The translations under genes and the position numbers were made by a program. Below the pieces are notes generated by a model. The model was given only the letters and a program-made list of their open reading frames with translations. It was not told the DNA's origin and did not search any database. This document shows positions 6,083 to 62,002 of a stretch of 64,000 nucleotides of DNA, one piece after another. The stretch's first letter is position 1. Every line of letters begins with the position of its first letter. Source of the stretch: an uncultured Gammaproteobacteria bacterium (lineage in GTDB: Bacteria; Pseudomonadota; Gammaproteobacteria; GCF-002020875); assembly GCA_963981015.1 (NCBI GenBank), contig CAXCCG010000002.1:8291-72290 (forward strand), written 5' to 3'.

Positions 6083-6086
6083 CGTA

Positions 6087-43520: not shown

Positions 43521-43944
43521 CCTGCAACTGCGTCAGGTCATCTTCACTCAGCTCTTCAGGTTGTGAAACATCAACCCAAGCTGCATCATCCCATAGCTCC
43601 AACTTAAACCCCACACCGGCTAGTACGGCCACTTTATCCAGTTTTGCATGATCACGAAGCTCCTGGCTCAACAAAATTCTTCCATTGCTATCCATTTCAC
43701 ACTCTTGTGAGCGTCCGATCACGACACGGCGCAGTTTGGATTGTTGACTACCCGGCAATAAACCAATTTTTGTCTCCACATCTTCCCACTCCGGCAAGGG
43801 ATAGAGATCCAGGCAGGGGGAACGAAAATTGGGGGCAACCACAACCTTTCCATCAGAGGCACCCAACAACTGAGAGCGATAGTGGGTCGGAATTGAAACC
43901 CGTCCCTTACCATCCATTTTGACTGATTTGTTTCCTCGAAACAT
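43507..43944 (-). CDS. mraZ: Transcriptional regulator MraZ
   Basis: 145 aa, N-terminus MFRGNKSVKMDGKGRVSIPT. Confidence 0.9.
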   Translation of the reverse strand: MFRGNKSVKMDGKGRVSIPTHYRSQLLGASDGKVVVAPNFRSPCLDLYPLPEWEDVETKIGLLPGSQQSKLRRVVIGRSQECEMDSNGRILLSQELRDHAKLDKVAVLAGVGFKLELWDDAAWVDVSQPEELSEDDLTQLQDVYF

Positions 43945-43965
43945 GGGTCAGCCCATAACCCGCAG

Positions 43966-45204
43966 TTAGTTAGCCTGACTTCGTAAAAAGGCGGGGATAT
44001 CGAGAAACTCCTCATCCAGCCCAGAGGCTGATGCACTGTTTACACCCGCCGCCCCATGCATTTGAGTCTCTTGTCTCTGAAAGGTAGGACGGTCCAGATC
44101 ACCACTCACTCTAGGTTGCTGAGGCATGTAGTCATCTGTACGTGGCATCTCCACTTCGACCAAAACAGGTTTTGGTCGTGGGTTTGCTTGCTCTGCAGCA
44201 ATGCTGTTCAACCCCGTTGCCACAACCGTAACACGGATCTCATCATTCATTGAAGCATCAAAACCTGCTCCAATCACAATGGTTGCGTCTTCAGAAGCGT
44301 ACTGACGTACCGCTGTTCCCACCTCATTAAACTGCCCCATGGTCAAGTCATAGCCGGAGGTGACATTGACCAGAATGCCGCGTGCACCGCGCAGGTCAAT
44401 ATCCTCCAGTAGCGGGCTGTGGAGCGCGATATCAGCAGCAATTGACGCACGATTCTCACCTGTGGCTGAGCCGGTACCCATCATTGCCATTCCCATCTCA
44501 GACATTACCGTTTTTACATCAGCAAAATCCACATTGATCATTCCCTCTCGGGTAATCAACTCAGCGATTCCCTGCACAGCACCTCGCAATACACCATCTG
44601 CCTCGCGGAACGCATCCATCACGGTCATGTCTGCACCAAAAACCGTCATTAATTTTTCATTTGGAATGGTAATAATAGAATCGACATGTTGACTCAACTC
44701 ATCAATTCCATCCAAAGCAACACTCATACGCTTTGGGCCTTCCATGGAAAATGGCTTGGTCACGACCGCTACTGTCAAGATCCCCATCTCTTTAGCAACT
44801 TCCGCAACGACCGGGGCCGCCCCGGTTCCTGTGCCACCACCCATTCCGGCTGTAATAAAGAGCATCTCTGTGCCTTCTATCGCCTCACGAATACGTTCCC
44901 GATCCTCTAGTGCAGAGTCTCGTCCAACGGTCGGCTTTGCACCGGCTCCACGACCACGTGTAGTCTGAACACCAATCTGTATTGCCGTGCTGGCAGAGGA
45001 TTTACCCAATGCCTGTGCATCGGTATTTGCACAGATGAAATCAACTCCCTCAATTTCAGAAGCAACCATATGTTCCAAGGCGTTACCACCTGCTCCCCCC
45101 ACTCCGATAACACGAATAATTGCGTTATCAGCATATGAATCGACTATTTCTTCAAACATATCTCTCCCTCGGCTTACTGGATTATTATAACCACTAGTCT
45201 CCAA
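43966..45204 (-). CDS. ftsZ: Cell division GTPase FtsZ, in a non-canonical position immediately upstream of mraZ
   Basis: 412 aa with GGGTGTG (GMGGGTGTGAAPVVAEVAKEMGILTVAVVTKPF), NTDAQAL and NVDFADV motifs, collinear with E. coli FtsZ. Its stop codon lies 21 nt upstream of the mraZ start. Confidence 0.96.
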   Translation of the reverse strand: METSGYNNPVSRGRDMFEEIVDSYADNAIIRVIGVGGAGGNALEHMVASEIEGVDFICANTDAQALGKSSASTAIQIGVQTTRGRGAGAKPTVGRDSALEDRERIREAIEGTEMLFITAGMGGGTGTGAAPVVAEVAKEMGILTVAVVTKPFSMEGPKRMSVALDGIDELSQHVDSIITIPNEKLMTVFGADMTVMDAFREADGVLRGAVQGIAELITREGMINVDFADVKTVMSEMGMAMMGTGSATGENRASIAADIALHSPLLEDIDLRGARGILVNVTSGYDLTMGQFNEVGTAVRQYASEDATIVIGAGFDASMNDEIRVTVVATGLNSIAAEQANPRPKPVLVEVEMPRTDDYMPQQPRVSGDLDRPTFQRQETQMHGAAGVNSASASGLDEEFLDIPAFLRSQAN

Positions 45205-45509
45205 AAAAACCCACTATACGCCACTTTTTCCCAATATCAACAAAATTTGAATTTTTTCCCCACACGACTCAAAACCTTCCGAAACCCCCAATTCACCTAT
45301 AACATTTTATAAATAATTTAAATATCATTGAGTTATAAGGTTTTATAGGGGTAATGACTGAACAATAATTTTCTCTGAATGATCGCCATAACCGGCCTAA
45401 CAGGACGGAGTATAGAAACATCAACTTAGCATTCAAAAATCGGGGGGGATGATGCTCAACAGCACCCTAAAATAGTATCCGGGAGCGGCCCGAACCTCAT
45501 TGACTGCTA

Positions 45510-45557
45510 GAGCTTGTCCGAGAATAGAGAATCTACTGCGGAAATCTGGGATGGTCA
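45510..45557. repeat. Half copy (left-arm type) of the palindromic repeat element, just downstream of the rnpB 3' end
   Basis: gagcttgtccgagaatagagaatctactgcggaaatctgggatggtc is about 80% identical to 152-198. Confidence 0.5.
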
Positions 45558-45610
45558 AAACAAGGTTGTCGGAGTACAAATACTCAAACATATTGTATGG
45601 AGAATTAAAA

Positions 45611-45962
45611 GAGGAAGCTGGTCGATAAGCCGGGTTCTGTCATGGACAACCATTCATCTGGGATGCGTGTCACCACACACCTCAAGCGACCTACCCGAGG
45701 ACAGAGCGAGCCACTCCATTGTCCCCCTATTTGGTCTTGCTCCGAGCGGGGTTTACCATGCCACAAGCAGTTACCTGCTGCGCGGTGTGCTCTTACCACA
45801 CCATTTCAACCTTACCGGCACGACAAGTCGTACGTAGGCGGTATATTTTCTGCTGCACTTTCCATAGGCTTTCACCTTCCAGGCGTTACCTGGCGCTCTG
45901 CTCTGCGGAGCCCGGACTTTCCTCTGTATTGCGAACAACACAGCGATTGCCTGACCAGCTTC
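45611..45962 (-). ncRNA. rnpB: RNase P RNA (bacterial type A)
   Basis: The reverse complement contains the 5' GAAGCUGGUCAGG...GAGGAAAGUCCGGGCUCC...GCCAGGUAACGCCUGG and the 3' AGAUGAAUGGUUGUCCAUGACAGAACCCGGCUUAUCGACCAGCUUCCUC, matching E. coli M1 RNA P4 and 3'-end regions. Confidence 0.85.
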
Positions 45963-45979
45963 CAGCGCAGGAGAATAAC

Positions 45980-46825
45980 CTACTCCAGCAACGACTGATA
46001 GAGCTTATTTTTCTTCACCCCTGTAATTTTTGAGGCAAGCTCTGCCGCTTTTCGTGGAGGTAACTCTTCGGCCAGCAGCTTCACAATACGTAGCGCCTCA
46101 ACGCCATCCACAACAGCCTCGCACACCCCTTCAACTATCAACACAAACTCTCCACGCAACCGATTGGGGTCTTCCCGGATCCAAACCAGCAGAGATGCCA
46201 GGGGTGCCGTATAGACCGACTCATGCATTTTGGTCAGCTCTCTGGCTACTGCAACACGACGCTCTCCACCAAAACAGCGCTCCATAGTCTGTAGAGCAGA
46301 CAGCACCCTTCGTGGTGACTCAAAAAAGATCATGGTGCGGGTCTCTTCTGCCAACGACTGCAGACGCTCTGTTCTCGCCCCCTCTTTACTGGGCAGAAAA
46401 CCTTCAAAACTAAAGCGGTGTACAGGCAAGCCTGACAAGGTCAGAGCCACCAGGGGTGCACTCGGACCGGGGATTGTCGTTACGGGTAAGCCCACTTCTC
46501 TCACCGCTGAGACAAGTCGAAAACCGGGATCATTGATCAGTGGTGTCCCCGCATCACTGATTTGAGCAATAGACTGACCTGAGCGAATCCGTTCCAGCAA
46601 AGACTCAATCCGGCTTAACTCATTATGCTCATGCATCGACAGCATTGGGGTTTCAATACCAAAGTGACGCATCAAGATCGCGCTATGACGGGTATCCTCT
46701 GCAACAATCAGATCAACTTGTGCCAGCGTACGCTGTGCTCTTGGTGAGAAATCATCAAGATTGCCAATCGGGGTTGCAACAATATAGAGTGTACCGGTCA
46801 CAACAATATCTACCTTTCCATCCAT
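45980..46825 (-). CDS. rsmI: 16S rRNA (cytidine1402-2'-O)-methyltransferase RsmI
   Basis: 281 aa tetrapyrrole-methylase fold (LYIVATPIGNLDD, AEDTR). Confidence 0.9.
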   Translation of the reverse strand: MDGKVDIVVTGTLYIVATPIGNLDDFSPRAQRTLAQVDLIVAEDTRHSAILMRHFGIETPMLSMHEHNELSRIESLLERIRSGQSIAQISDAGTPLINDPGFRLVSAVREVGLPVTTIPGPSAPLVALTLSGLPVHRFSFEGFLPSKEGARTERLQSLAEETRTMIFFESPRRVLSALQTMERCFGGERRVAVARELTKMHESVYTAPLASLLVWIREDPNRLRGEFVLIVEGVCEAVVDGVEALRIVKLLAEELPPRKAAELASKITGVKKNKLYQSLLE

Positions 46826-46837
46826 GAGTGTCCACTA

Positions 46838-47221
46838 TTGAAACAGAAAACGGTCAACCCCTCCACTATTGGGCAACATGCAGAGCAGGCTGCACTCCAG
46901 TTCCTTACTGAACAGGGACTCTCTCTAATCACCCGTAACTACCTCTTTAAAGGGGGAGAGATTGACCTGATCATGCATCACAACCAGCAACTCATTTTTA
47001 TCGAGGTGCGATTCCGTAGTCACGCCAGTTTTGGTAGTGGCGCAGAGAGTGTCACCCGAGCCAAACAACAGAAAATTTCAAAAACTGCCCTCCATTTTCT
47101 GCAAAAGCAGCCTCAATATGCAGAGCATGAGATCCGCTTCGACGTTCTCTCGCTTTCGATGGAGCATGGTCAATATAAATATCACTGGATCGAAGAGGCA
47201 TTCTGGCCTGGAGACGGTTAA
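46838..47221 (+). CDS. yraN: YraN-family (UPF0102) endonuclease-like protein
   Basis: 127 aa with GGEIDLIM...FIEVR.R. Confidence 0.85.
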   Translation: MKQKTVNPSTIGQHAEQAALQFLTEQGLSLITRNYLFKGGEIDLIMHHNQQLIFIEVRFRSHASFGSGAESVTRAKQQKISKTALHFLQKQPQYAEHEIRFDVLSLSMEHGQYKYHWIEEAFWPGDG

Positions 47222-47264
47222 ACTATACTTCAGCTTTTCGGAACATTCATAAAGTGGAATAACT

Positions 47265-47840
47265 ATGCTACAGCAACAACTCGTTTTCATTGCACTGATC
47301 ACCCTTTTGACACAGCTTTCAGGCTGTTCAACCACCGCCACAACCAATACGGGCAGGGTGGGTGCAGCAGCCACCGACCAACGCTCTGTTGGTACGGTAA
47401 TGGATGATGAAATTATTGAGATCAATGCCTCCAACGCGCTCTACCAGGACAAAACGCTGAACGAGCAGACTCATGTCAACTTCACCAGTTATAATTTTAT
47501 TGTATTAATTACTGGCGAAACGCCCAGCAAGGCACTCAAGAGCCGCATTGAGCAGATCGTCAAATCGATTCCAAAGGTGCGCCGCGTCCACAATATGCTC
47601 AATATCGCCGCACCCAGCTCAATGCTAAGCAGGACCAGTGATGCAACCCTGACACTTCGCATCAAAACAGCCATGGTTGGAGAGGGTGATCTGGCTCACC
47701 GCGTCAAGGTTGTCACAGAAAATGGAACGACCTACTTAATGGGTCTTACCAGCCGCCAGCAAGGCGCTAAAGCCGTCTCTATCACACAGCAAATCAGTGG
47801 TGTACAGAAGATCGTCAAACTTTTTGAATATGTTGATTAA
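47265..47840 (+). CDS. dolP: Division/outer-membrane stress lipoprotein DolP (YraP), dual BON domain
   Basis: 191 aa. Lipobox LSGCS and two BON-like segments. Synteny with yraN. Confidence 0.8.
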   Translation: MLQQQLVFIALITLLTQLSGCSTTATTNTGRVGAAATDQRSVGTVMDDEIIEINASNALYQDKTLNEQTHVNFTSYNFIVLITGETPSKALKSRIEQIVKSIPKVRRVHNMLNIAAPSSMLSRTSDATLTLRIKTAMVGEGDLAHRVKVVTENGTTYLMGLTSRQQGAKAVSITQQISGVQKIVKLFEYVD

Positions 47841-47993
47841 GGAACCTCTGAGCAACCAGCACTCGAACCAGAAACTCTCATCACGACAACCTCCAAAATA
47901 AAACAGTACGTTATATGACAGATCCCCACCCACGCGGGAGTGACGAGGTTAAAATGAGAATTACAGCACTCGAACAACATACCTTGCATCACT

Positions 47994-49373
47994 ATGCTCT
48001 CAGATGAACTTCAGAAGGCTTTTTTAAAGCTACTTGGCAGAGACTGTTTTCTCACCAGCAACGCTGATCGACTCACTTACAGCTATGACAACAGCCGTCT
48101 CTCGCAATTACCGGATGCAGTTCTCCTCCCAACCAGCGAAGAGCAGATCAGAGAGATCGCTACGCTCTGTTATCAACACAAGCTCCCTTTAACCACTCGC
48201 GGCAGAGGGAGTGGAACCGCAGGTGCCGCCGTTCCACTCCAACAGGGTATCGTGCTCTCCACAGAGAAGATGAATTCAATCAAGCGGATTGAACCTGAGA
48301 ATCGCTTAATCGTGGTAGAACCCGGAGTCACCAACCAGCAGGTCCAACAGGAGGCTGCGCGTTATGGATTTTTCTGGCCCCCAGACCCCGGCAGCAGTCC
48401 GTTCTGCAGTGTTGGCGGCAATATCGCCTGCGGTTCAGCTGGGCCACATGCTGTTAAGTATGGAACCGTACGAGAAAATGTCCTTGGATTACGTGTAGTC
48501 ACCGGCAAGGGTAAGATTATCCGCACCGGTACAGAGACCACTAAATGGGCTGTGGGGTATGATCTAACCCGACTGTTGATCGGCTCAGAGGGGACTCTGG
48601 CCATTACCACTGAGGCGACCTTAAAACTGATTCCCATACCACAGTCCAGAGTGATGATGCGCGCCCTCTACCAGGATATCCAGAGTGCTGCAGATGCCGT
48701 TTCTACCATCATGGGACAACCTGAAACTCCTGCGGCTTTAGAGTTTATGGATAGCGTCTGCTTGCAGCTTATTCGACATCAATTAAGCGCCGAACTTCCA
48801 GACGGTACCGGTGCAATGCTGCTGATTGAGGCCGATGGCTCCCCAAAAAGTGTGAATGAGACCTCCAGTGCGATCCAAAAAGCTGCTGAAAATAGTGGAT
48901 TAATCAACTTTCACATTGCGCAAACAGATCATGAGGCCCAACAACTGTGGCAAGCACGAAAAATACTATCCCCCCGACTACGCGAGATTGCACCCAAGAA
49001 AATTAATGAGGATGTTGTCGTTCCTGTCTCCAGAATTCCAGAACTGGTCTCAACGATTCAACAGCTTGCAGAACATCACCAGATCCGTATTGCCAACTTT
49101 GGTCATGCTGGCAATGGCAACCTTCACACCAATATACTGGTTGATCCGGACAATCTTGATGAGATGGCACGTGCAGAACTGTGCTTGAAGTCACTCTTCG
49201 AGGCTGTTCTGTCACTTAAAGGGTCCATCTCCGGGGAGCATGGAGTCGGCATTGTCAAACAACCTTATGTTGCTCAAGAGATTGGGTTAACCGAGCGCCA
49301 ACTAATGAGTGATATCAAACAGCTTTTTGACCCTCATTCGATTCTCAACCCCGGAAAGGGGCCACAAATTTAG
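47994..49373 (+). CDS. FAD-linked oxidase (GlcD / D-lactate dehydrogenase family)
   Basis: 459 aa, FAD-binding PCMH domain (RGRGSGTAGAAVP) and FAD-oxidase C-terminus (HAGNGNLH, SGEHGVG). Confidence 0.8.
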   Translation: MLSDELQKAFLKLLGRDCFLTSNADRLTYSYDNSRLSQLPDAVLLPTSEEQIREIATLCYQHKLPLTTRGRGSGTAGAAVPLQQGIVLSTEKMNSIKRIEPENRLIVVEPGVTNQQVQQEAARYGFFWPPDPGSSPFCSVGGNIACGSAGPHAVKYGTVRENVLGLRVVTGKGKIIRTGTETTKWAVGYDLTRLLIGSEGTLAITTEATLKLIPIPQSRVMMRALYQDIQSAADAVSTIMGQPETPAALEFMDSVCLQLIRHQLSAELPDGTGAMLLIEADGSPKSVNETSSAIQKAAENSGLINFHIAQTDHEAQQLWQARKILSPRLREIAPKKINEDVVVPVSRIPELVSTIQQLAEHHQIRIANFGHAGNGNLHTNILVDPDNLDEMARAELCLKSLFEAVLSLKGSISGEHGVGIVKQPYVAQEIGLTERQLMSDIKQLFDPHSILNPGKGPQI

Positions 49374-49402
49374 TGCTCTGGCAACAAGCCAGGATAGATA
49401 GC

Positions 49403-49921
49403 CTATGACTTAACCAACGTTAATGCAGGCTTCCCATCTTTCTTTACTGACTTCTTTTCAGCAGCCCCCTTGCCTGAATTATCTGAGGCTTGAGTCGTTT
49501 TCTCCGGCTTGTTACTGACTGCTGCAACAGGATGCTCTTCACGCACTGAGTCTGAATTCAGCGCGGTGGATGCCTGTTGCACATCCTCCTCTGGGAAGAC
49601 CATTCCCTGACCATTTTCACGAGCATAGAGTGCATTCACTGCACTGGGGGGGAAAGAGACTGACTCAGAGACTCCGGAAAATCGTGCACTGAAGCTAATC
49701 CAGTCATTCTCAATAGAGAGTGATGAGACCGCATCATAACCACAGTTCAGTACAATCTTGCCATCATTGATATGCGCAACTGGAACCGTCACCATAGGTA
49801 GCTCTGCATCCACAACAATATAGGGTGTTAAACCATTATCTGTGATCCAGGCATGTATTGCGCGAATCATATAGGGTCTGCTAGAACTCATCTGCAACGC
49901 ATCCACCGGCAAATCACTCAT
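49403..49921 (-). CDS. sspB: ClpXP adaptor / stringent starvation protein B
   Basis: 172 aa, N-terminus RPYMIRAIHAWITDNGLTPYIVVD. Confidence 0.88.
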   Translation of the reverse strand: MSDLPVDALQMSSSRPYMIRAIHAWITDNGLTPYIVVDAELPMVTVPVAHINDGKIVLNCGYDAVSSLSIENDWISFSARFSGVSESVSFPPSAVNALYARENGQGMVFPEEDVQQASTALNSDSVREEHPVAAVSNKPEKTTQASDNSGKGAAEKKSVKKDGKPALTLVKS

Positions 49922-50537
49922 CCAGCTCTCGCTCCTCTTCTGTCAAGCTATCCATAAATGAGTCACGATCAAACAACCGCTCCGCATAATCGGTGACCGC
50001 TTTTGCAGACAGTGGCAGAGTAATTTTAAGTGACTTCAGTCTCCATAAAATGGGGGCCAAGCTACAATCTACCAGCGAAAAATCATCACTCATAAAAAAT
50101 TGGGATTGTGCAAACAGCGGTGCCAGCATGGTAATGCTCTCCGTCAATGAGCTGCGTGCCTGAGCTGCTACCTTATCTCCCCCCTGCTCAATCTCTTCTA
50201 TTCGCTTTGACCAATCAAGATCAATACGTTCAATCATCTGACGCGCCTGGGCACGTGCTACAGGGTCTACCGGCATCAGTGGAGGGTGCGGAAAACGCTC
50301 ATCCAGATACTCCATGATTACCTTAGAACCAAATAGTGTTAAGTCTCTGTCTGCAATCGTGGGCAGTAGCTGATAAGGGCTCAGCTTCAAAAACTCTTCT
50401 TGGGGATCAGAAATATCCACACTTTCAACCTCATGGACAATTCCCTTCTCTGCCATCACAATTCTGACTCTATGACTCAAGTGATCCTGTGGTCCTGAAA
50501 ACAGAACCATAACAGAGCGCCTATTCGCAATAGTCAT
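49914..50537 (-). CDS. sspA: Stringent starvation protein A
   Basis: 207 aa GST-like with SVMVLFSGP..HLSHRVRIV. Confidence 0.92.
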   Translation of the reverse strand: MTIANRRSVMVLFSGPQDHLSHRVRIVMAEKGIVHEVESVDISDPQEEFLKLSPYQLLPTIADRDLTLFGSKVIMEYLDERFPHPPLMPVDPVARAQARQMIERIDLDWSKRIEEIEQGGDKVAAQARSSLTESITMLAPLFAQSQFFMSDDFSLVDCSLAPILWRLKSLKITLPLSAKAVTDYAERLFDRDSFMDSLTEEERELDE

Positions 50538-50615
50538 ACTTTTCCTTGTTCGCTTAAATGTAAGAAAACCCTGAACCCAAAAGGGTTCAGGGCTTATTTG
50601 AACTGCTGTATAAAA

Positions 50616-51329
50616 CTAGTGAACGTCTTTCCAATACTCTTTCTTCAGACGGTAGGCCGGAATCAGCAAAATCAACAGAAAACCAAGCACATACCAGCCT
50701 AAGGTCATACGATAAGCCTTAACAGGCTCACCCACATAGGCGAGGAAGTTCACCAAGTCGCCAACCGCCTTATCATATTCAGCTGCGGTCATTGAACCGG
50801 AACCATCCACAGTCAACGTACCATCTTCCTGCAATGTCTGTTTACCTTGTAGCCCCTGCAAAACATGAGGCATACCTACATCCTTGAAGACGACATTATT
50901 AACACCCATTGGACGGGATGGGTCAACATAGAAACCTCGCAGGTAGGTATAGAGCCAATCATCTCCACGCGCACGAGAGATCACACTCAGATCAGGAGGC
51001 GTTGTTCCAAACCATTTTGCCGCTTGCTCTGCCGGCATTGCGATCTCCATGGTGTCATGGATTTTGGCTCCGGTAAAGACCAGATTATCCAACACCTCTT
51101 GATCACTCATACCCAGATCATCCGCCATTCTCTTATAGCGCATAAACCTGGCTGAGTGACAGCTCAGACAGTAATTCATGAATAATTTGGCACCATTCTT
51201 CAGTGACTCATTATCCGATAGATCTACCGGAGCTGTGTCCAGGTGTACGCCACCCCCACCGCCCCCCATCACAAAGGAGGGGAAAAGCAGCAGCAGTAGT
51301 ACGCCGGTTTTTTTCATCATCTTTTTCAT
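50616..51329 (-). CDS. petC: Ubiquinol-cytochrome c reductase cytochrome c1 subunit
   Basis: 237 aa. Signal peptide, CLSCH heme motif, C-terminal TM anchor. Confidence 0.85.
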   Translation of the reverse strand: MKKMMKKTGVLLLLLFPSFVMGGGGGGVHLDTAPVDLSDNESLKNGAKLFMNYCLSCHSARFMRYKRMADDLGMSDQEVLDNLVFTGAKIHDTMEIAMPAEQAAKWFGTTPPDLSVISRARGDDWLYTYLRGFYVDPSRPMGVNNVVFKDVGMPHVLQGLQGKQTLQEDGTLTVDGSGSMTAAEYDKAVGDLVNFLAYVGEPVKAYRMTLGWYVLGFLLILLIPAYRLKKEYWKDVH

Positions 51330-51348
51330 CGATTTTTTCTCCTTGTCC

Positions 51349-52596
51349 TTAATGCTCTGGCAGACGCTCAGGGACCGGCTTGGTCTTGTCCATCTTCGAG
51401 TAGAAAGGCATCAACAGGAAGAAGGCAAAATAGATAACCGAGAAGATCCGTGCAAACATGGTAGCAACTGGTGTAGCCGGCTGTGTACCTAACCAGGAGA
51501 GCGCTACGAATGCGACCACAAAGATCGCCAGGGCCAACTTGGATATCATTCCCTTGTACTTGATTGACTTTACCGAACTCCGATCCAACCAAGGCAGGAT
51601 GAAAAGCATGATAATCGCACCAAACATTGCCACTACACCAAGGAACTTATCGGGGACGGCGCGCAAGATTGCGTAGAAGGCTGTAAAGTACCAGAGCGGA
51701 ACAATATGCTCGGGGGTCTTTAATGGGTCAGCAGGGACAAAGTTGTCCTTCTCCAGGAACCACCCCCCCATCTCCGGCACAAAGAACATCACTGCAGAGA
51801 AGATCATCAGGAAGACAATCACACCGACAATATCTTTCACAGAGTAGTAAGGGTGAAACGGAATACCATCCGCAGGGGCAGTCTCGCTCCAGCGATTTCC
51901 TTTCGGTCCCTCTTTAATCTCAATTCCTTCAGGGTTGTTAGAGCCAACTGCATGCAGTGCAACAATATGTAAGAAGACCAGCATCACCAGTACCAGGGGT
52001 ACCGCAATGACATGGAAGGCGAAGAAGCGGTTGAGAGTCGCATCCGCGATCACGAAGTCACCACGAATCCATAATGCAATCTCTTCACCTACGTAAGGTA
52101 CTGCACCAAACAGGGAGATAATAACCTGCGCACCCCAGTAGGACATCTGCCCCCATGGCAGCAGATAGCCCATAAAGGCTTCCGCCATCAGCGCTAGATA
52201 GAGCACCATACCAAATACCCAGATCAACTCACGCGGTTTACGGTAGGAGCCATACATCAGTCCACGGAACATGTGGAGATAGATCACCACAAAAAAGGCA
52301 GAGGCGCCGGTTGAATGCATATAGCGAATCAACCACCCCCACTCCACATCACGCATAATGTACTCTACCGAGGCAAAGGCGAGTTCTGCATCGGGCTTGT
52401 AGTTCATGGTGAGGAAAATTCCGGTCACAATCTGAATCACTAACACCAACATCGCCAGTGAGCCAAAGAAGTACCAGAAATTGAAGTTCTTCGGCGCGTA
52501 GTATTGCGCCAGATGCTCATTCCATACTTTTAGCAGTGGAAAGCGCTGGTCAAACCAGCCTACCACGCCTGTAGCTTCAGTCTCTCTCAGTCCCAT
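51349..52596 (-). CDS. petB: Cytochrome b of the bc1 complex
   Basis: 415 aa polytopic cytochrome b/b6. Confidence 0.93.
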   Translation of the reverse strand: MGLRETEATGVVGWFDQRFPLLKVWNEHLAQYYAPKNFNFWYFFGSLAMLVLVIQIVTGIFLTMNYKPDAELAFASVEYIMRDVEWGWLIRYMHSTGASAFFVVIYLHMFRGLMYGSYRKPRELIWVFGMVLYLALMAEAFMGYLLPWGQMSYWGAQVIISLFGAVPYVGEEIALWIRGDFVIADATLNRFFAFHVIAVPLVLVMLVFLHIVALHAVGSNNPEGIEIKEGPKGNRWSETAPADGIPFHPYYSVKDIVGVIVFLMIFSAVMFFVPEMGGWFLEKDNFVPADPLKTPEHIVPLWYFTAFYAILRAVPDKFLGVVAMFGAIIMLFILPWLDRSSVKSIKYKGMISKLALAIFVVAFVALSWLGTQPATPVATMFARIFSVIYFAFFLLMPFYSKMDKTKPVPERLPEH

Positions 52597-53189
52597 TATG
52601 CTGCTCCTTGATCGACGCCAATCAGGATACGGGTATCACTGACGTAGTTGTGTGGAGGAATGACCAGGTTGGTAGGTGCAGGTACACCTTGATAAACGCG
52701 ACCCGCCAAATCGAAGCGAGAGCCGTGACAGGGGCAGAAGAACCCCCCCTTCCAGTCGGGGCCGAGATCGGCAGGTGCCATCTCAGGACGGAATGTTGGA
52801 GAACAACCCAGGTGGGTACAGATCCCAACCGTTACCAGATACTCTGGCTTGATCGCACGTGCTGCATTCTGGCAGTACGCCGGCTGGTCCGACTCTGCGG
52901 AGGCTGGATCACTTAAGATACCGTCCAGTGCCTTCAGGTCATTCAGCGTCTCTTCAGTGCGGCGAACAATCCAGACTGGCTTGCCACGCCACTCCACCGT
53001 CAGCATCTGCCCCGGTTCCATCTTGCTGATATCGGCCTCAACAGGGGCGCCTGCAGCCTGTGCTCTTGCACTAGGACTCATAGACTTCACAAATGGTACC
53101 GCTACAAAAGCAGCACCTACTGCGCCCACTGCAGAGGTTGCTGCCGTCAAAAAACGACGCTTACCCAGATCTACAGTCTCTGTACTCAT
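52596..53189 (-). CDS. petA: Ubiquinol-cytochrome c reductase Rieske iron-sulfur subunit
   Basis: Tat motif KRRFLT, and Rieske boxes CTHLGC and CPCHGS. Start trimmed to MSTETVD. Confidence 0.9.
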   Translation of the reverse strand: MSTETVDLGKRRFLTAATSAVGAVGAAFVAVPFVKSMSPSARAQAAGAPVEADISKMEPGQMLTVEWRGKPVWIVRRTEETLNDLKALDGILSDPASAESDQPAYCQNAARAIKPEYLVTVGICTHLGCSPTFRPEMAPADLGPDWKGGFFCPCHGSRFDLAGRVYQGVPAPTNLVIPPHNYVSDTRILIGVDQGAA

Positions 53190-53333
53190 ACAGTCTCTCC
53201 AAAAATTGATGATGGACCCATTCAGCGTCCCCATTTAACCGCTAAACACATACACACCAAACCCAAAATTAGTGGCGGGAGATATTACCATAAACTGTTT
53301 GGGTGATTACACCCTTTTTAGGAGCGGGCTTAT

Positions 53334-55118
53334 TTAGCAACTACTCATATGACGCTGCAGCCAATATTCCGTAAGTGTCAACTGCCATAACTTGCTTCCC
53401 TGAATACGGGTAAAACTATTCTCAGCAGTTGGGTTGGCCAGCAATTTATCAATATAACTACGCTGATAAAGCCCCCGTTCACGACACGCCTGAGAACATA
53501 GAATATCTTGCATAAATTCCAGAAATTCACCACGTACATATTTAAGTGCAGGCATCGGAAAATACCCTTTGGGCCGATCAATCACCGAGTCAGGCAACAG
53601 TCCGCGAGAGATCAACTTGAGTGGCCCCTTCCCCTGATGTTTCAGTTTCAATGCCGGAGGAATCTGGGCCGCTAACTCCACCAGCTGGTGATCCAGGAAT
53701 GGTACCCTCGCCTCTAACCCCCAAGCCATGGTCATGTTATCAACCCGCTTGACCGGATCATCAACCACCAGTGTAGTGGTATCTGCCCGCAACACTTGGT
53801 CCAGATACTCATCTGCCCCAGCTCTCTCCAGCAACTCCTGCATCAGTACAGCAGTATGATCTTCACCCTGATATGGCTCTGCAAGCAGCTCCATCATCTC
53901 CGGGTGGTCTCGGTCAAAATAAAATTGACGAAAACGGTCCACCGGAGAACCTGTAGCACCCTCCATCAGCGGATACCAAAAGTAGCCTGCGAACACCTCA
54001 TCTGCACCCTGACCACTCAATACTACACTCACCTCTTGCGAAACCTGCTCCGCTAACAGATAGAAACCAATCGCATCCTGACCAAACATCGGCTCTGACA
54101 TCGCATCCACCGCCTCAGTCAATCTTGGCAATGCCTGATCATTTGGGATTATAATTTTCTGATGCCGGGTCTGGAATCGCTCCACAACCGCGTCAGAGTA
54201 CTCAAATTCACTTCCACGCTCCTCTGGCGAATCCTCAAAGCCAATCGAGAAGGTACGAATATCTCTGTGGCCCGCCTCAGCCAACATCCCCACCAACAGA
54301 CTGGAGTCGAGTCCACCCGAGAGCAAGACACCAACAGGCACATCGGAAGCGGCACGCCGCCGCTCAACCGCCTGCATCAGTGATTCACGAACCGCCTCAG
54401 CCCACTCCCATTCACTCTTTGCCTCTACAGGGCGCTGTGCTGTTAATGACCAATAACGATGCTGCTCTGTTAAGCCATCCGCATGGATGGTTTTCCAGTG
54501 GGCAGGCTCCATTTTATGAACTTCACGAAACAGTGTACGCGGTGCCGGTACCACAGCATGTAGAGAAAAATGGTGGTGCAGTGCCAGCGGATCAAATTGA
54601 GTATCCACTCCTCCCGCAGCCAGTAATGCAGGAAGCGTGGAGGCAAACAGGAGTCGTTTACCATCTTGAGTCCAGTAAAGTGGTTTGATACCCATCCGGT
54701 CACGCACCAGATGTAGCTGCTTAGCACGTTGGTCCCAAAGTGCAAAGGCAAACATTCCTGCAAAACGTTCTACACACGCCTGCCCCCAAGCATGAAAGGA
54801 TTTCAGGATAACTTCCGTATCACCCGTGGAGGTAAAGTGGTACCCAAGCCCTTTCAACTCCTCTCTGAGTTCACGAAAATTGTAGATCGTGCCATTAAAA
54901 ACGATAGTGAACGCCAGCTCAGAATCAACCATCGGTTGATGTCCTCGCTCTGAGAGGTCGAGGATTGAGAGGCGGCGATGCCCAAACTGTAACGGCCCCT
55001 GCTGCCACACCCCTTCATCATCGGGCCCTCTGGGTCGCAATGGCTGCAACATTTTCCGGATGGTCACCGAATCCGGTGCCATACCATCCAATCTTAATTC
55101 TCCACAAATTCCACACAT
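53334..55118 (-). CDS. Asparagine synthase (glutamine-hydrolysing) family amidotransferase, long form (about 595 aa)
   Basis: The N-terminal nucleophile requires Cys2, so the start was reset to MCGICGE. There is a Gn-AT-II domain plus an AsnB synthetase domain (SGGLDSS). Confidence 0.85.
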   Translation of the reverse strand: MCGICGELRLDGMAPDSVTIRKMLQPLRPRGPDDEGVWQQGPLQFGHRRLSILDLSERGHQPMVDSELAFTIVFNGTIYNFRELREELKGLGYHFTSTGDTEVILKSFHAWGQACVERFAGMFAFALWDQRAKQLHLVRDRMGIKPLYWTQDGKRLLFASTLPALLAAGGVDTQFDPLALHHHFSLHAVVPAPRTLFREVHKMEPAHWKTIHADGLTEQHRYWSLTAQRPVEAKSEWEWAEAVRESLMQAVERRRAASDVPVGVLLSGGLDSSLLVGMLAEAGHRDIRTFSIGFEDSPEERGSEFEYSDAVVERFQTRHQKIIIPNDQALPRLTEAVDAMSEPMFGQDAIGFYLLAEQVSQEVSVVLSGQGADEVFAGYFWYPLMEGATGSPVDRFRQFYFDRDHPEMMELLAEPYQGEDHTAVLMQELLERAGADEYLDQVLRADTTTLVVDDPVKRVDNMTMAWGLEARVPFLDHQLVELAAQIPPALKLKHQGKGPLKLISRGLLPDSVIDRPKGYFPMPALKYVRGEFLEFMQDILCSQACRERGLYQRSYIDKLLANPTAENSFTRIQGSKLWQLTLTEYWLQRHMSSC

Positions 55119-55144
55119 GCGATGAATTGACGGTAATCTGTGCG

Positions 55145-56035
55145 CTAGTACCGCACCAAACTCTCTACTTTGAGCCACTCATCGTAGATTTTTTTCAATC
55201 TGAGCGCCTCTTTCTTGTCGCTCGCACTGTAGTCACGGAGGAGATAGTAGGTCTTTGAACCCTGCTGAACCGTCACGATCTGAAGCTTGAAGCTGGACTC
55301 CCCTAAATCTTTAACGATAGCATCAGCTCTTTTTTTGTTGGTAAATGCACCTACCTGAACATGGTTGTGACCCAGCTTTGACTCTCTCTTTTTAGCAGCT
55401 ACCGGAGCAACCGGAGTGACCGCCTGTTTTTGAGGCTTCACATCGGCAACGGCTCTCTCTGTAATTTTAGCTACAGGCAACTCTGACTTAGAGATCGATT
55501 GTTCCATCAGAATCCGCTCTTTTTCTGACTCAACGGTTTCCATACTACCACTCACCTTCTCATCCACATGTACTGTTTCAACCATCTTCTGTTGAGGCGG
55601 TTCCGATTGTGGCACTACAGATTTTTCGGTCATGGATGCAACCGATGAACCCTGTTTAACGGACTCTATTGGCTCAACGGAATCAATCACACTCTCAACA
55701 GGGCTGGACTCCACAATCTCTTCCTGAGCAATCGTAACAGCCTCCTTTTTAAGGACAGCAACCTCATCGACCGGCTGACTCATACTCTCTGGATTCAGTT
55801 GCTTAGACTTCGCTTCACGCTGTTCACGTGTCTCCTGCAAAAGATTTTCAAGCTCTTGATACTCCTGGAGAAAAGGATCTAAGCCCTGCTCCTCGTTCTT
55901 TACTACAGAGTCCGCTGCGAGGGGATCCTTTAATGGATCTGGTCCAGAGACATCTTCAGAAAAATAGAGTGATCCACCGATAACAGCGGATAAGGCAACT
56001 GCAAAGGCAATAAACAGGGGGGCATGTTGTGTCAT
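55145..56035 (-). CDS. SPOR-domain (septal peptidoglycan-binding) bitopic protein
   Basis: 296 aa. N-terminal TM segment, an acidic/Pro-Glu-rich linker, and a C-terminal SPOR-like fold (HVQVGAFTNKKRADAIVKDL...YYLLRDYSASDKKEA). Confidence 0.75.
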   Translation of the reverse strand: MTQHAPLFIAFAVALSAVIGGSLYFSEDVSGPDPLKDPLAADSVVKNEEQGLDPFLQEYQELENLLQETREQREAKSKQLNPESMSQPVDEVAVLKKEAVTIAQEEIVESSPVESVIDSVEPIESVKQGSSVASMTEKSVVPQSEPPQQKMVETVHVDEKVSGSMETVESEKERILMEQSISKSELPVAKITERAVADVKPQKQAVTPVAPVAAKKRESKLGHNHVQVGAFTNKKRADAIVKDLGESSFKLQIVTVQQGSKTYYLLRDYSASDKKEALRLKKIYDEWLKVESLVRY

Positions 56036-56214
56036 AACGCTTGATTTCTATCCATGGTTACAAGTCATTAAGTATTATATAAAAGCACCTATAACGAATG
56101 CTTTGCTATCTGAACAACGCTGAGTCGCGCTAAGCAGAAAGGTCAGAGGCTGCTTTCTTCAACTTTCAAAGCGTATATACTACTGAACTCGAACCCGTTT
56201 GGTTACTAAAAAAT

Positions 56215-58302
56215 ATGTCTGATCCGCTTCTTCCTCCTCTTTTGCAGCTCTGCAAATTACACGGCTTCCCTCTAGCTGCGGAATCCTTGCTGGCAGGCAT
56301 TCCTCTGAAGCGTGGCTTACTGAATCCAGCACTGACCGTTCGAGCGCTACAGCGATCCGGTATCAACGGCAATATTGACAATCTTCCGCTAAAGAAGCTA
56401 TCAACCACACAGCTGCCGGCACTACTCTTTCTAAAGGAGAAGAAGGCTGTAGTGCTCAGCAAAATTGATGGAAAAACTGCCTATATCCTCGATAATGCGG
56501 GTCAAGAGGAGTCCATTGAACTCAAAAAACTCAAGCAACAGTACAATGGTCAAACACTGATCATTAATGGTGCACTGCCTCCAGCTGAAGGGGGGCAGGG
56601 AAAGCTCTGGTTCTGGAAAACCATCCTCAAGGGGTGGCCCATCTACAGCGAAAGTATATTTGCCTCTTTTATGGTCAATCTGTTTACCCTGGCCAGCCCT
56701 CTTTTCGTGATGAACGTCTATGACCGAGTGGTTCCCAACAATGCAATGGAGACCTTATGGGTGTTGGCAATTGGCGCGCTACTGGTTGCAGGATTTGATT
56801 TTCTGCTGCGTACGCTACGTGCCTACTTTATTGATGTGGCTGGAAAACGTGCTGATTTAGCTCTATCAGCCACCATCTTCGAACAACTCTTGGGTACCCG
56901 AATGGAGGCACGTGACCCGGCCTCCGGTGCCATCGCAAACCATATGCGTGAATTTGAGGGGCTTCGTGATTTCTTCACCTCTGCCTCACTCACAACTCTG
57001 ATTGACTTGCCATTTCTTGTCATCTTTCTTGCTGTCATCTGGATGATTGGCGGCCCCATTGTCTTTATTCCAATGACAGCCATTCCTATTGTGCTCATCT
57101 CTGCCCTGCTGCTGCAGATCCCGCTCCATCGCGCAGTGAGTGAAACCTTTAAAGAGGCTACACAAAAACACGCCATTCTGGTCGAGGCGATCTCTGCCGC
57201 CGAAACGATCAAAAGTGAAAATGCCGAGGGGGTCATGCAGCAGAAATGGGAAGGCTATGTCGAGAAGCTTGCCAAGTCGGGGATGAAAAGCAAGCTCTGG
57301 TCGACCCTAGCAATCAATCTGACAACCTTCACCCACCAAGCTGCAACCATCGCCATTGTGGTATTTGGTGTTCACCAGATTTCAGCAGGTGAGATGAGTA
57401 TTGGTGCCTTGATTGCCTGTACCATTCTCGCCGGTCGTGCACTGGCCCCTTTGGCAGGAATCGCCGCGCTACTGATTCGTTATCGACAATCCATGGTTGC
57501 TCTACGCGCACTTCATGGGGTAATGCAAAAACCGATCGAGCGCCCGGTCACGACCCATTTTCTACACCGTCCTCCACTACAAGGGGCTATCGAGCTACGG
57601 AAAGTCAGCTTTCAATATCCTAATCAGGAAGATCATGCTCTGCATGATCTCAATGCCACCATCCAACCGGGTGAACGGGTTGCCATTATTGGTCGTATTG
57701 GGTCGGGGAAAAGTACATTACAAAAATTGCTGCTCGGCCTCTACCAGCCACAGTCAGGCAGCCTGCTGATCGACCATACCCACTTAAATCAACTGGATCC
57801 TGCACAACTACGGCGCTCAATCGGTTATGTTTCACAAGAGATTGTCCTGTTCCGGGGCACACTTCGAGATAACATCAAACTTGGCAACCCACAGGCGAGT
57901 GATGAGGAGTTATTGGATGCCTCTCAACTGGCCGGTGTAGATACCTTTGTTCGGCAACACCCCAAAGGCTATGATCTGGAGGTTGGGGAACGGGGAGAGG
58001 GGCTCTCTGGCGGTCAACGGCAAGCGGTCGCGATGGCGCGTGCACTACTCCAAAAACCACCGATCATCCTGCTCGATGAACCCACCAGCTCGATGGATAA
58101 CAGTGCTGAACAGCAGTGGAAGGAGCGTTTCACCCCATTTCTGAAGGGGAGAACCCTGATATTGGTCACCCACCGCAGCTCTCTGCTCTCTCTGGCGGAC
58201 CGACTCATTATTCTGGATCAGGGTAAAATTGTCGGAGATGGCCCGAGAGACCGGGTTCTAGAGGCGTTAAACCAGGGTAAAGTCCTGCAAAACACAACAT
58301 AA
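56215..58302 (+). CDS. Type I secretion system permease/ATPase (ABC exporter with an N-terminal C39-like domain)
   Basis: 695 aa. A roughly 130-aa N-terminal C39-like domain, a 6-TM ABC transmembrane domain, and a C-terminal NBD (GRIGSGKST, LSGGQRQ, ILLDEPTS). Confidence 0.85.
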   Translation: MSDPLLPPLLQLCKLHGFPLAAESLLAGIPLKRGLLNPALTVRALQRSGINGNIDNLPLKKLSTTQLPALLFLKEKKAVVLSKIDGKTAYILDNAGQEESIELKKLKQQYNGQTLIINGALPPAEGGQGKLWFWKTILKGWPIYSESIFASFMVNLFTLASPLFVMNVYDRVVPNNAMETLWVLAIGALLVAGFDFLLRTLRAYFIDVAGKRADLALSATIFEQLLGTRMEARDPASGAIANHMREFEGLRDFFTSASLTTLIDLPFLVIFLAVIWMIGGPIVFIPMTAIPIVLISALLLQIPLHRAVSETFKEATQKHAILVEAISAAETIKSENAEGVMQQKWEGYVEKLAKSGMKSKLWSTLAINLTTFTHQAATIAIVVFGVHQISAGEMSIGALIACTILAGRALAPLAGIAALLIRYRQSMVALRALHGVMQKPIERPVTTHFLHRPPLQGAIELRKVSFQYPNQEDHALHDLNATIQPGERVAIIGRIGSGKSTLQKLLLGLYQPQSGSLLIDHTHLNQLDPAQLRRSIGYVSQEIVLFRGTLRDNIKLGNPQASDEELLDASQLAGVDTFVRQHPKGYDLEVGERGEGLSGGQRQAVAMARALLQKPPIILLDEPTSSMDNSAEQQWKERFTPFLKGRTLILVTHRSSLLSLADRLIILDQGKIVGDGPRDRVLEALNQGKVLQNTT

Positions 58303-58334: not shown

Positions 58335-60359
58335 CTAATTACTACGGATAATCCAGTTTCCCGTCTTACTGGAGTTGAGGTTCAGCTTATCCAGTTTGCG
58401 GTTAAAGCGCCTGAGCTGTTTTCCCAGCTCACCCTTTCTCTGACTTAACAGCTGACTCCGGTTCTTCAACTTCTGGTTATAACTGGAACCGTTATGGCTG
58501 GAGCGGTTCATTCTGCTCGCCAATAACAACCTGCGCTGCTCATGACGATTCAATTGCCCGCCACGCTCTTTCGGTTTCTGCCTTGGGGCCATCTGCGTAT
58601 TACCTTGTGACAATACCAGAGTAGGTTTAACCGGGGGCGGAGCGAGCATTGCCACTTCTGTCTGCACCACTCGACTGTCTACCACAACCGGTTTCCGGCC
58701 TCTTGCCTCATCCACTGCATTCAACACTACCCAGCCTGCATCTTTCATCTGGTCATAAGCCACATTCCAACTTGATGTTTTCTGAGTCATTGCCAAGTCT
58801 GGTGATGTAGTGGAAACTGAAGCCTCTGAGGCTGTAGCCACCGTCTCTGTCACCACAGTGCCGAACTCCGGTCCAGCCCCCCCACCATCAGTGACTATAG
58901 CGGTTTCAACAGAACTGCCGATCCCCATAATCGTGTCTGCAACCTTACCCGGTGCAGCCAGTACCCGGTCAATAAAGACCAGATCTCCAGCATCCTCTTC
59001 CGTCTCAAAACTATTCAGTATCTCTTCGGGAATATCCAAATAATTGAGCAGTACGCCAAGATGAGCAATCACCCGATAGACTCCAAGCCTTACACTGGTG
59101 TCATCTTGCAATACTGCCAACTTGGCCTGCAGTAGCGCATCATCTGCCGCCATAATCGTCATTACATCGGCTTCACCCAGCTTGAACTGCTCTTGAACCG
59201 ATTGTGCGTTTTCATGTGCGATTTGATACTGCTTTTTGCTCGTCATCAATAACTCTCGAGTAACTTCCAACCCATTCCAGTAGAGTTTTAACTGCTCTTC
59301 CATGCTGTGGCGTGCAATATTCAACTGCTCCTGACTATCAACCACGCTCTTCGCCATCTCTCTTCTGCGAGATTGATCTGCCCCCCCCCGAAACAGGTTA
59401 TATTTCATTTTCAGCAGAGCCGTATAATAGTCCTCTTGCCCCTCATTACCTCCATTATTGAGGTCACGCCCCCCTTTGAGTTCAAAATCAAGAGTTGGTA
59501 ACAAACCGGCACGGGTACCCTCAAAATCCGCCTTGATTGCATTCAGGTTCGCTCTCGCACTCTTCAAAATCGGATTATTTACCAATAACACTTCTATCGC
59601 TTGTGTATATTCAGCGGGCACCCCCCAGTCGGGGACGTCCATTGCCTTGTTCAATACTTCAGATGGCGCCAAGCCAACCACCTTGGTGTATCGTGCCAAC
59701 GCATCTCTATACTCACCTCTGGCAGAAATGAGTGCTGATTGTGCAGCCAGCAACGGAGTTTCTGCTGCAACCAGCTCTGATTTTCCAGCCCCCCCAGCCT
59801 CTACTTTCTCCTGAATCTGCATAAACAGCTTGTTATGCTGATTGACGTTCTCTACAGTCCATCGGATCACCCGTTGAAGGCGATAAATTTCATACCAGGA
59901 CTCAATCGTCTGCAATGCCACAGAGATGCGGATTTCATCCAGCTGAACGGTAGAAACCTCTAACATTTGGCCGCTACGATCTACCGCAGCTGCTGCCGCT
60001 CCTCCATCAAAAAGTGGCTGTGTTAAGGTGACTGTTGTACTTTTTTTCATCATCTTTGTAGAATCAGAGGTCGGTTTATCTCTGTATTCACGGCCTGAAT
60101 CCAGACTCACATCTAGCGTTGGAAGCCATCCTGCGACCGCTTGCCCCAGCTGTTCATCTGCAATACCCACACCATGGTAGGCTGACTTAATTTCCGGATT
60201 ATTTTGCAACGCCAAATGAATCGCTTGTGACAATGAGTGAGCATAGCTTGCCATCGGAGTTGAAAGTACCGCAACCAGAGCGGTCACTACAACCCTCTTT
60301 GCTACGTGCCGACGAGCACCTATTAATTTTACATTTCTATCATTCATCTTACTCACCAC
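58335..60359 (-). CDS. TolC-family outer-membrane efflux protein (T1SS OMF type) with a roughly 235-aa non-TolC C-terminal extension ending in a basic tail
   Basis: 674 aa. Signal peptide, a TolC-like two-repeat region to about residue 440, then a Thr/Ser/Val-rich segment and a Lys/Arg-rich C-terminus. Confidence 0.75.
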   Translation of the reverse strand: MVSKMNDRNVKLIGARRHVAKRVVVTALVAVLSTPMASYAHSLSQAIHLALQNNPEIKSAYHGVGIADEQLGQAVAGWLPTLDVSLDSGREYRDKPTSDSTKMMKKSTTVTLTQPLFDGGAAAAAVDRSGQMLEVSTVQLDEIRISVALQTIESWYEIYRLQRVIRWTVENVNQHNKLFMQIQEKVEAGGAGKSELVAAETPLLAAQSALISARGEYRDALARYTKVVGLAPSEVLNKAMDVPDWGVPAEYTQAIEVLLVNNPILKSARANLNAIKADFEGTRAGLLPTLDFELKGGRDLNNGGNEGQEDYYTALLKMKYNLFRGGADQSRRREMAKSVVDSQEQLNIARHSMEEQLKLYWNGLEVTRELLMTSKKQYQIAHENAQSVQEQFKLGEADVMTIMAADDALLQAKLAVLQDDTSVRLGVYRVIAHLGVLLNYLDIPEEILNSFETEEDAGDLVFIDRVLAAPGKVADTIMGIGSSVETAIVTDGGGAGPEFGTVVTETVATASEASVSTTSPDLAMTQKTSSWNVAYDQMKDAGWVVLNAVDEARGRKPVVVDSRVVQTEVAMLAPPPVKPTLVLSQGNTQMAPRQKPKERGGQLNRHEQRRLLLASRMNRSSHNGSSYNQKLKNRSQLLSQRKGELGKQLRRFNRKLDKLNLNSSKTGNWIIRSN

Positions 60360-60753: not shown

Positions 60754-62002
60754 CTACCAACTGAGGCTCACACCACCGTTGACCAATGGCGTCCCTGCTG
60801 CACTATTCCAACTGGTTCCAAGACTGAACTGCGTAGTATCTGTCAAACTACCCTTCATCCCGACCGCCACACCTGTTTCTCCTTCATAGTAGCTAGTACC
60901 CATACCAATCGAAAAGTGACGATTCGGGGCTGGAGGTGGAAGTGCTGCCAATGCTGCCACTGAAGCAACCCCTCCATAGGCGATATCGAGCTGACTGCGG
61001 TTAACCCGCATCCATTGGATCTACACCATCTGCAACCCCCATTACACGGCTGGGAGCACCTGTTATAGGGTGGGCAAAACTGGCCCCCTTTTCGTCCAGA
61101 GTAATATAGGTACTGTTTACACCTCCAGAGAGTATTGTTTGATCATTTTGTACCACCAAGCCATGTGCAATACCGGTTGTTGGGTTATTAACTGTCAGAT
61201 TGATCGCCCCATTGGTTGCACCTGACAGGCTCAAGCCGTCAACAATTAACCCCCCTGTAATAGAAGTACCGGTACTATCGACCACCAGGGATTTCATACC
61301 ACTTTGGAGCGTAACTGCATTACCGTTGACTACAGTAGCTCCTGTGGTGTTCCCTACATTTACTGCACCCGTACCGGTACCTAAATTTGTTGTAGCGGCC
61401 GTAGTTGCATTGATGTTAGTTACCCCAATGATATTGGTTGTACTGCCGACATTATCATTACCAATATTGGTTGCCCTTGCCACACTATTATCAGTATTGA
61501 TATTGGTTGTGGTGCCTACAATATCGGTAGTCACACCTTGTACTAATGTATTGGTATCTCCAACAGTAATCTGACTGGTGCTACTGGTCACCAAACTAAT
61601 ATCTCCTGCAGTCACATTACCAATACTGACTGCTCCAGTGCCATTCACAAAATCGGTCACTGAATTGATTGAGGTCGCTCCATTCTGTCCCACTGAAAAA
61701 AGATTACTATTACTATTATTGTTGATCAAAAAGCTATCCGTTTTGGCTGTCATCGCTGTGGTATCCAGAATTACATTATTGGTACTCCTGGCCGCATCAT
61801 CTGCATAAAGACCCACTTCTGATCCACCACCTGTTCCAACATAGGTCGTCACCAAACCTGCACTTGAATCAGTCAGTGCCCAGCCACTGGCAATATTGTC
61901 ACCTTCTCCAACCAGTACCATAGGTGCTGCACTCAGCTGCATCGCAACCAGCATTCCGATCAGTACTATGTTTTTCTGCAGTGTCTCAATTTTCACGTTC
62001 AT
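60754..62002 (-). pseudogene. Trimeric autotransporter adhesin (YadA-like). A +1 frameshift separates the passenger (61001..62002) from the C-terminal beta-barrel anchor (60754..61011).
   Basis: The passenger has a signal peptide and Thr/Asn/Gly-rich head repeats, ending ...GVADGVDPMDAG*. The next frame encodes a YadA-anchor ending ...GVSLSW. Deleting one C from the CCC run at 61005-61007 restores a continuous ...DPMDAVNRSQL neck. Confidence 0.65.

Follow-up and report, generated by a model that had tools for sequence, protein, structure and literature searches.

A single-base frameshift in the neck of a trimeric autotransporter adhesin gene of an uncultured gammaproteobacterium: probably a recent pseudogene with a rare intact allele

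In a 64-kb stretch of DNA from an uncultured gammaproteobacterium of putatively marine type, hereafter the window, two overlapping reading frames on the minus strand together resemble a single surface adhesin that has been cut by one base. A preliminary description, made from the letters of the sequence, had left three options for this locus: a sequencing or assembly indel, a recent pseudogene, or an on/off switch. We asked which of these readings, or whether a fourth one, programmed recoding during translation, best accounts for the split.

Two reading frames of one adhesin gene

The locus comprises the following features, of which the last two refer to the protein obtained after repair of the frameshift.

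61001 to 62002, minus strand: passenger ORF of 333 aa, from the ATG at 62002 to the TAA at 61003-61001, the stop lying within the coordinates; it ends ...VADGVDPMDAG.
60754 to 61011, minus strand, +1 frame: anchor ORF of 85 aa, from the ATG at 61011 to the stop at 60754; it ends ...GGVSLSW.
61005 to 61007, minus strand: frameshift site, GGG on the coding strand (CCC on the plus strand), in the context GAT GCG GGT TAA.
60946 to 60999, minus strand: predicted alpha-helix, residues 335-352 of the repaired protein (DSSP on an AlphaFold2 model; aligns with the Hia helix).
60763 to 60915, minus strand: four predicted beta-strands, residues 363-413 of the repaired protein (AlphaFold2 model).

The two ORFs overlap by 11 nt, and the passenger closes with the letters ...VMGVADGVDPMDAG directly before its stop codon. 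Removal of one G from the GGG at 61005-61007 gives a continuous ORF of 415 aa which ends in GVSLSW and reads ...DPMDAVNRSQLDIAYGG... across the junction, including DAVNRSQL. The corresponding codons of the intact allele are GAT GCG GTT AAC (D A V N). The stretch available for a +1 shift is the 20 nt from the TAG in the anchor frame to the TAA of the passenger. When the ORFs, their translations and the CCC run were read again, all coordinates and sequences given for the split gene in the preliminary description proved correct.

The passenger starts with a hydrophobic, signal-like segment followed by an APMVLVG motif, a series of degenerate repeats rich in Thr, Asn and Gly, and a conserved pre-neck block (HGLVV...LSGG...ITLDEKGASF...VMGVADG). 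By inspection, its N-terminus has a charged start, the hydrophobic stretch IVLIGMLVAM and then QLSAAP. As a side observation, the motif A-P-M-[VIM]-L-[VI]-G right after the hydrophobic segment (residues 25-33; window about 61904-61930) is shared by the homologues P0002-P0009, and its conserved Pro follows Ala-Ala at the expected +1 position, which is unusual for a signal peptidase I site. The anchor ORF, for its part, holds the remainder of the neck motif (VNRSQL), the pore helix, the four beta-strands and the terminal GVSLSW. No signal peptide was found in its 85 aa, nor any Shine-Dalgarno-like sequence upstream of its ATG.

Several lines of evidence identify the family. The Pfam model YadA_anchor (PF03895) matches the 85-aa ORF with E=1.5e-9, scoring 38 bits where the cut-off is 22.7, and the repaired 415-aa protein with E=4.2e-8. 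A protein search with the repaired protein returned 30 homologues, every one of them a single ORF, of 303-638 aa and with the same anchor; these are uninterrupted over the junction, where they read ...G[VI]ADG....DAVN[RVM].Q[LF]..., and share with the window gene both the pre-neck block and, at the N-terminus, the motif APM[VI]L[VI]G. In an alignment of 28 sequences, D331, A332 and Q337 are invariant while V333 and N334 are at least 90% conserved; the frameshift, which falls between A332 and V333, thus lies inside the most conserved motif of the family. The neck motif VA.G....DAVN..QL becomes complete only after the frameshift is repaired.

The alignment profile matches known structures of Hia (3emo, 2gr7, 2gr8), YadA (2lme), BadA/Vomp (3d9x, 4lgo) and AtaA (9vnj), with E-values of 1e-10 to 8e-7 for the Hia and YadA translocators. 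Positions 306-337 of the profile match the BadA/Vomp neck structures 3d9x and 4lgo, and the profile search aligns DAVN..QL of the repaired protein with TDAINGSQL of Hia. In contrast, the model YadA_stalk (PF05662) gave no match to the repaired protein at E<=1 and stayed below threshold on the orthologues P0004 and P0003, and no Pfam head domain was matched in the passenger.

In an AlphaFold2 monomer model of the repaired protein, DSSP assigns the strands to residues 363-372, 375-385, 390-399 and 405-413. The helix at residues 335-352 is predicted to be the short coiled-coil and pore-plugging helix that joins passenger to barrel, and the four strands are predicted to form one third of a 12-stranded trimeric barrel. 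The pLDDT is ~70-79 over helix and strands and below 50 for residues 1-140; the model is poor for the head, as expected of an obligate trimer, and given this quality we abandoned a classification of the head from it. In a Foldseek comparison, the translocators of Hia, AtaA and YadA were the only significant PDB matches, the best being Hia 2gr8/3emo/2gr7, AtaA 9vnj and YadA 2lme; the match to Hia 2gr8 has a probability of 1.00 and a TM-score of 0.77 normalised to Hia residues 1022-1098. Membership of the gene in the trimeric autotransporter family (type Vc) is therefore well supported, and ORF, Pfam, alignment and fold evidence agree with the earlier reading, in which a frameshift of one base interrupts a YadA-like trimeric autotransporter in its neck.

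Like the translocators of Hia from Haemophilus influenzae and YadA from Yersinia, the repaired protein has a C-terminal helix plus four strands preceded by DA[VI]N..QL. Unlike these proteins, it is much smaller (415 aa), has almost no stalk and carries a head without a Pfam match, and its gene lies among flagellar, FlgO-like and type I secretion genes.

The GGG and GG alleles and their orthologues

The split arrangement recurs in a large number of public assemblies. In a cluster look-up, the exact 85-aa ORF was present on 172 contigs and on 27 further JGI contigs for which a length of 68 aa is called, while the exact 333-aa passenger was present on 158 contigs, with a further 27, 4 and 2 on which its start is called elsewhere. 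Within the assembly collection, entries for the 85-aa ORF number 299 blocks. The sources of the GGG allele are independent assemblies, namely, ENA SPAdes assemblies, JGI, NCBI MAGs and Logan, and the contigs that we read (ENA SPAdes at 14x and 43x, JGI, and an NCBI MAG; high-coverage GGG samples include ERZ4231634 at 14x and ERZ4200985 at 43x) all had the 333 (or 331) plus 85 arrangement. The NCBI label of these MAGs is only "Gammaproteobacteria bacterium".

Over 11-13 kb, five of the contigs (L001-L005) match the window at 99.98-100% identity, and the neighbouring proteins are found in identical form on 141-190 contigs each. Diversity in this population amounts to 0-2 SNPs per 13 kb, or about 1e-4. 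Such near-identity of loci and neighbours indicates that the window represents a very homogeneous and often-sampled population in which GGG is the true majority genotype. Protein variants are rare, with 4 singletons in the 333 aa of the passenger and 0-7 variants in the neighbours, counts too low for a test of relaxed selection. One unrelated indel variant (P0043), a singleton on a contig of 904 nt, points to occasional indel noise. Neither half of the gene has acquired further disabling mutations.

Looking up the exact sequence of the repaired 415-aa protein, we found that the intact allele exists as well. The protein (P0033) is encoded on two ENA contigs from different samples and assemblers.

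L008: ERZ4200974, SPAdes, 74 kb, 5.5x; GG allele.
L009: ERZ27237637, MEGAHIT, 2.1 kb; GG allele.

The missing G is the sole difference between L009 and the window over 2.1 kb. L008 also lacks this G and is otherwise identical in the adhesin gene, but has an anomaly in the gene of the Rieske iron-sulfur protein, from which about 80 nt are missing (L008 about 11740-11750; window about 52894-52970). This gap truncates an essential gene and is probably a low-coverage assembly defect, which lowers confidence in L008.

As controls, we looked up six other ±1 variants in the same protein collection: G4 and G1 at the site itself, G6->G5 and G6->G7 elsewhere in the adhesin gene, and G9->G8 and G9->G10 in the TolC gene. 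None of the six was present. Since two independent contigs carry exactly the deletion that restores the ORF, noise is not a plausible explanation, and we conclude that GG is a genuine minor allele found in about 1% of assemblies (2 versus ~200), both carrier contigs being of low coverage. Should both GG contigs nonetheless be erroneous, the pseudogene would be fixed rather than polymorphic; the frequency estimate would change while the main conclusion stays.

Intact orthologues were found in the same gene order on three contigs (L010, L011 and L012), the conserved order being small lipoprotein, FlgO, FlgO, adhesin, small ORF, TolC, ABC transporter. At these loci, the anchor is 72-75% identical to that of the window, the ABC transporter 77%, TolC 46% and the two FlgO proteins 57% and 67%, whereas the passengers can be aligned only over their last ~66 residues, at about 40% identity. 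Together, the shared synteny and these identities mark the loci as orthologous, with a fast-evolving head. At the junction, the orthologues have the codons GCT GTG AAT, GCA GTT AAT or GCC GTC AAT, without a G run. Judged by these codons, the ancestral state is a single ORF, and the window lineage gained one G at a GG dinucleotide.

A scan of genome contigs with the repaired protein retrieved no species representative carrying the locus; the same scan returned only distant anchors in Brevundimonas and Rhodanobacter. In a scan of metagenome contigs, neither the intact allele nor any tract of 1-6 nt at the site, GGG included, gave a match, so that this collection, which lacks the organism, does not weigh on the allele counts. 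Sister lineages were reached through the nearby cytochrome b gene. Relatives with a 93% identical cytochrome b are labelled Thiotrichales, and in a lineage with that label (P0113) the adhesin module is absent at this position. The closest relative found (L016) has a 97% identical cytochrome b, and its DNA is 93.7% identical over window positions 41349-55366, which hold 14 kb of core genes; in the ABC transporter gene (window 56168-58194), its identity drops sharply to about 76%. The contigs of both L016 and L015 end in this ABC transporter gene. Divergence among sister lineages is far greater in the adhesin region than in the core genome around it, and the type I secretion, adhesin and FlgO-like genes together behave like an island that is either hypervariable or exchanged.

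Gene loss, switching, recoding or error

We consider it very probable that the split reflects a genuine and recent 1-bp insertion which inactivates a trimeric autotransporter adhesin and is nearly fixed in a near-clonal population, the intact allele being rare. The reproducible split, the intact orthologues and the rare intact allele make the recent pseudogene the best supported of the three options raised at the outset. In a natural population that is close to clonal, the GGG allele prevails, and roughly 1% of assemblies have the intact one. Because neither half has been disabled any further and both alleles sit on otherwise identical backgrounds, the insertion appears to be recent.

From what is known of the family, the intact 415-aa product would be exported by the Sec pathway, and three C-terminal anchors, each contributing one helix and four strands, would assemble into a 12-stranded barrel in the outer membrane, through which the passenger would thread, to fold at the cell surface as a trimeric head and neck. 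In the GGG allele, one extra G was inserted at the GG of GCG-GTT, within the DAVN neck motif, and translation would end three residues before the anchor helix. The resulting 333-aa passenger would be devoid of both the trimerising helix and the barrel, and surface display would not be expected. With a passenger that lacks the barrel and an anchor ORF that lacks a signal peptide and an evident ribosome-binding site, the adhesin would be OFF in the GGG allele, as far as the family is a guide to the fate of both fragments; low-level read-through may occur. The event is, on this account, an ordinary recent gene loss which involves no special switch and no new mechanism.

The closest precedent is yadA of Yersinia pestis, of which the window gene is a new example. 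On plasmid pCD1, this YadA-family adhesin gene has likewise been inactivated by a small frameshifting indel and is a pseudogene common to a monomorphic lineage whose relatives have the gene intact (PMC9248902). The two cases differ in that the Y. pestis pseudogene is fixed and tied to a documented lifestyle change, whereas the window gene belongs to an uncultured environmental gammaproteobacterium in which a rare intact allele remains.

The best surviving alternative, although an improbable one, is ON/OFF phase variation in which slipped-strand or template-switch mutation between GG and GGG keeps the population mostly OFF with a minority ON. Both alleles do occur on otherwise identical backgrounds, as such a switch would have it, but standing polymorphism at a diversity of ~1e-4 explains this equally well. 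Phase variation is frequent among surface adhesins, and the locus resembles the phase-variable NadA, UspA1 and Hia of mucosal pathogens in its secretion class and in the presence of ON and OFF genotypes within one population. Switches of the NadA, UspA1 and Hia type depend on long tracts, homopolymeric or of tetranucleotides, which mostly lie within the promoter or close to it. The site in the window, in contrast, is a GG/GGG inside the coding neck motif which is not conserved in orthologues, the latter having no G run there.

The length of the tract weighs further against switching. A run of 2-3 nt is far below the ~7 or more nucleotides of known contingency loci, and with GG in the ON and GGG in the OFF allele there is no hypermutable tract of the kind that defines them. 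Other G runs in the adhesin gene (one G6, two G5 and three G4) should slip more readily, yet no such variants were seen; of the seven ±1 variants tested, only the ORF-restoring one was present, which would fit a switch. The ratio of GGG to GG alleles, at about 200:2, likewise speaks against it. The earlier remark that so short a tract argues against classical phase variation is thus strengthened by an ON tract of just GG, by orthologues lacking the run and by the invariance of the G4-G6 tracts.

One feature of the junction could still favour templated reversion, in that the intact sequence GCGGTTAACCGC is a perfect 12-nt palindrome which the extra G breaks. Palindromes of 12 nt, however, occur in the window at chance frequency (14 observed against 14.2 expected), for which reason we rejected this one as a mutational hotspot. 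A minimal-tract switch, in which the ON palindrome GCGGTTAACCGC would template the correction of the OFF quasi-palindrome and so raise the rate of reversion, seems to us even less probable than phase variation in general. If it were true, a small share of the cells in a near-clonal planktonic population could stay adhesin-ON, for example particle-attached ones, and the two GG assemblies would come from samples in which such cells were enriched.

Programmed +1 frameshifting is very unlikely. Here, full-length adhesin would still come from the GGG allele in regulated amounts, through a ribosomal shift either at GCG-G-GUU, in the manner of Ty3, or at GGU-UAA-C, in that of prfB. Skipping one G after GCG would indeed yield the exact consensus DAVN, and there is a zero-frame stop right at the shift site whose next base, C, makes for weak termination, as in prfB. 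Against this, the split lacks conservation, all orthologues and the 30 family members being single ORFs, and the intact allele occurs within the same population. Moreover, there is no slippery motif and no upstream Shine-Dalgarno-like stimulator, and the downstream RNA fold is not significant (z = -1.3). Re-pairing of the P-site from GGU to GUU would involve a mismatch at the central position, and a shift at the stop codon would give DAGN, changing a residue that is at least 90% conserved. Of the features of prfB, then, the adjacent stop codon alone is found; conservation, an SD-like stimulator and good P-site re-pairing are not.

The least probable reading is a sequencing or assembly artefact that hides a true GG genotype and an intact gene, for which two assemblies with GG could be cited but which, offered as one option by the preliminary description, is refuted by the same GGG on about 200 independent contigs that come from varied samples, assemblers and centres and reach 43x coverage, a 3-nt run not being error-prone in short-read data and the neighbouring genes being identical across the same contigs. 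The GG genotype in which that description would have seen the mark of an assembly error is real, but it is a minor natural allele confined to 2 of about 200 assemblies, and hence does not make the GGG of the window an error.

For annotation, gene loss by insertion means that two deposited "hypothetical proteins" are one frameshifted trimeric autotransporter gene, which should be merged and flagged but not "corrected". For the organism, it means that an abundant and almost clonal uncultured population would have the only small adhesin linked to this locus in the OFF state, with a rare ON allele. The locus thereby offers a small, concrete case of the loss of a surface structure which can be tracked in existing metagenomes by a single-base marker.

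Neighbouring genes and other features of the window

The adhesin gene is flanked by the following genes, the first three upstream and the last three downstream of it.

63826 to 63434, minus strand: Cys-rich lipoprotein of 130 aa.
63437 to 62769, minus strand: FlgO-family protein of 222 aa (PF17680).
62748 to 62035, minus strand: FlgO-family lipoprotein of 237 aa (PF17680).
60715 to 60362, minus strand: ORF of 117 aa without a family match.
60347 to 58335, minus strand: TolC-family outer-membrane protein (TIGR01844).
56215 to 58302, plus strand: type I secretion ABC transporter of the LssB/LapB type (TIGR03375).

The two FlgO-family neighbours match PF17680 with E-values of 1e-32 and 1e-40. The upstream trio is found in the same order beside the intact orthologue in L010 (L010 1915-5747), and the downstream gene order is the same in L012 (31-1792). 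The module around the adhesin, comprising the lipoprotein, two FlgO-family genes and an ORF of 117-148 aa, adjoins flgM and flagellin genes. In one of the GGG contigs (L001), the flagellin gene (about 5000-6300, upstream of the window end) is interrupted by two 100-N scaffold gaps; in another (L002), the flagellin is complete at 504 aa, its central part not matching that of L001. The central domain of this flagellin thus seems to be either variable or difficult to assemble.

Of the 670 aa of the TolC-like protein, Pfam OEP and TIGR01844 cover only about residues 40-438. Its C-terminal ~230 residues (58335-59040) form a long, low-complexity, basic extension that is unusual for TolC proteins. 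The gene also contains a G9 tract at window positions 59381-59389 (C9 on the plus strand), in codons 320-323 (F-R-G-G-A). In five cases, a public contig or gene call has one of its ends no more than about 12 codons away from this tract, with call lengths of 318 aa (P0073), 332 (P0074), 341 (P0072), 340 (P0076) and 322 (P0075). We regard the G9 as a candidate for slippage, and a far better one than the GGG of the adhesin gene; the exact truncated products expected from G8 and G10 were absent from the protein collection.

Long runs of this kind are not restricted to the TolC gene. In the 64-kb window, with a GC content of 51%, the plus strand has two C9, four C8 and eleven C7 runs, for example at 13613-13621, 7367-7374, 20925-20932, 30527-30534 and 43398-43405, which correspond to G runs in mostly minus-strand genes.
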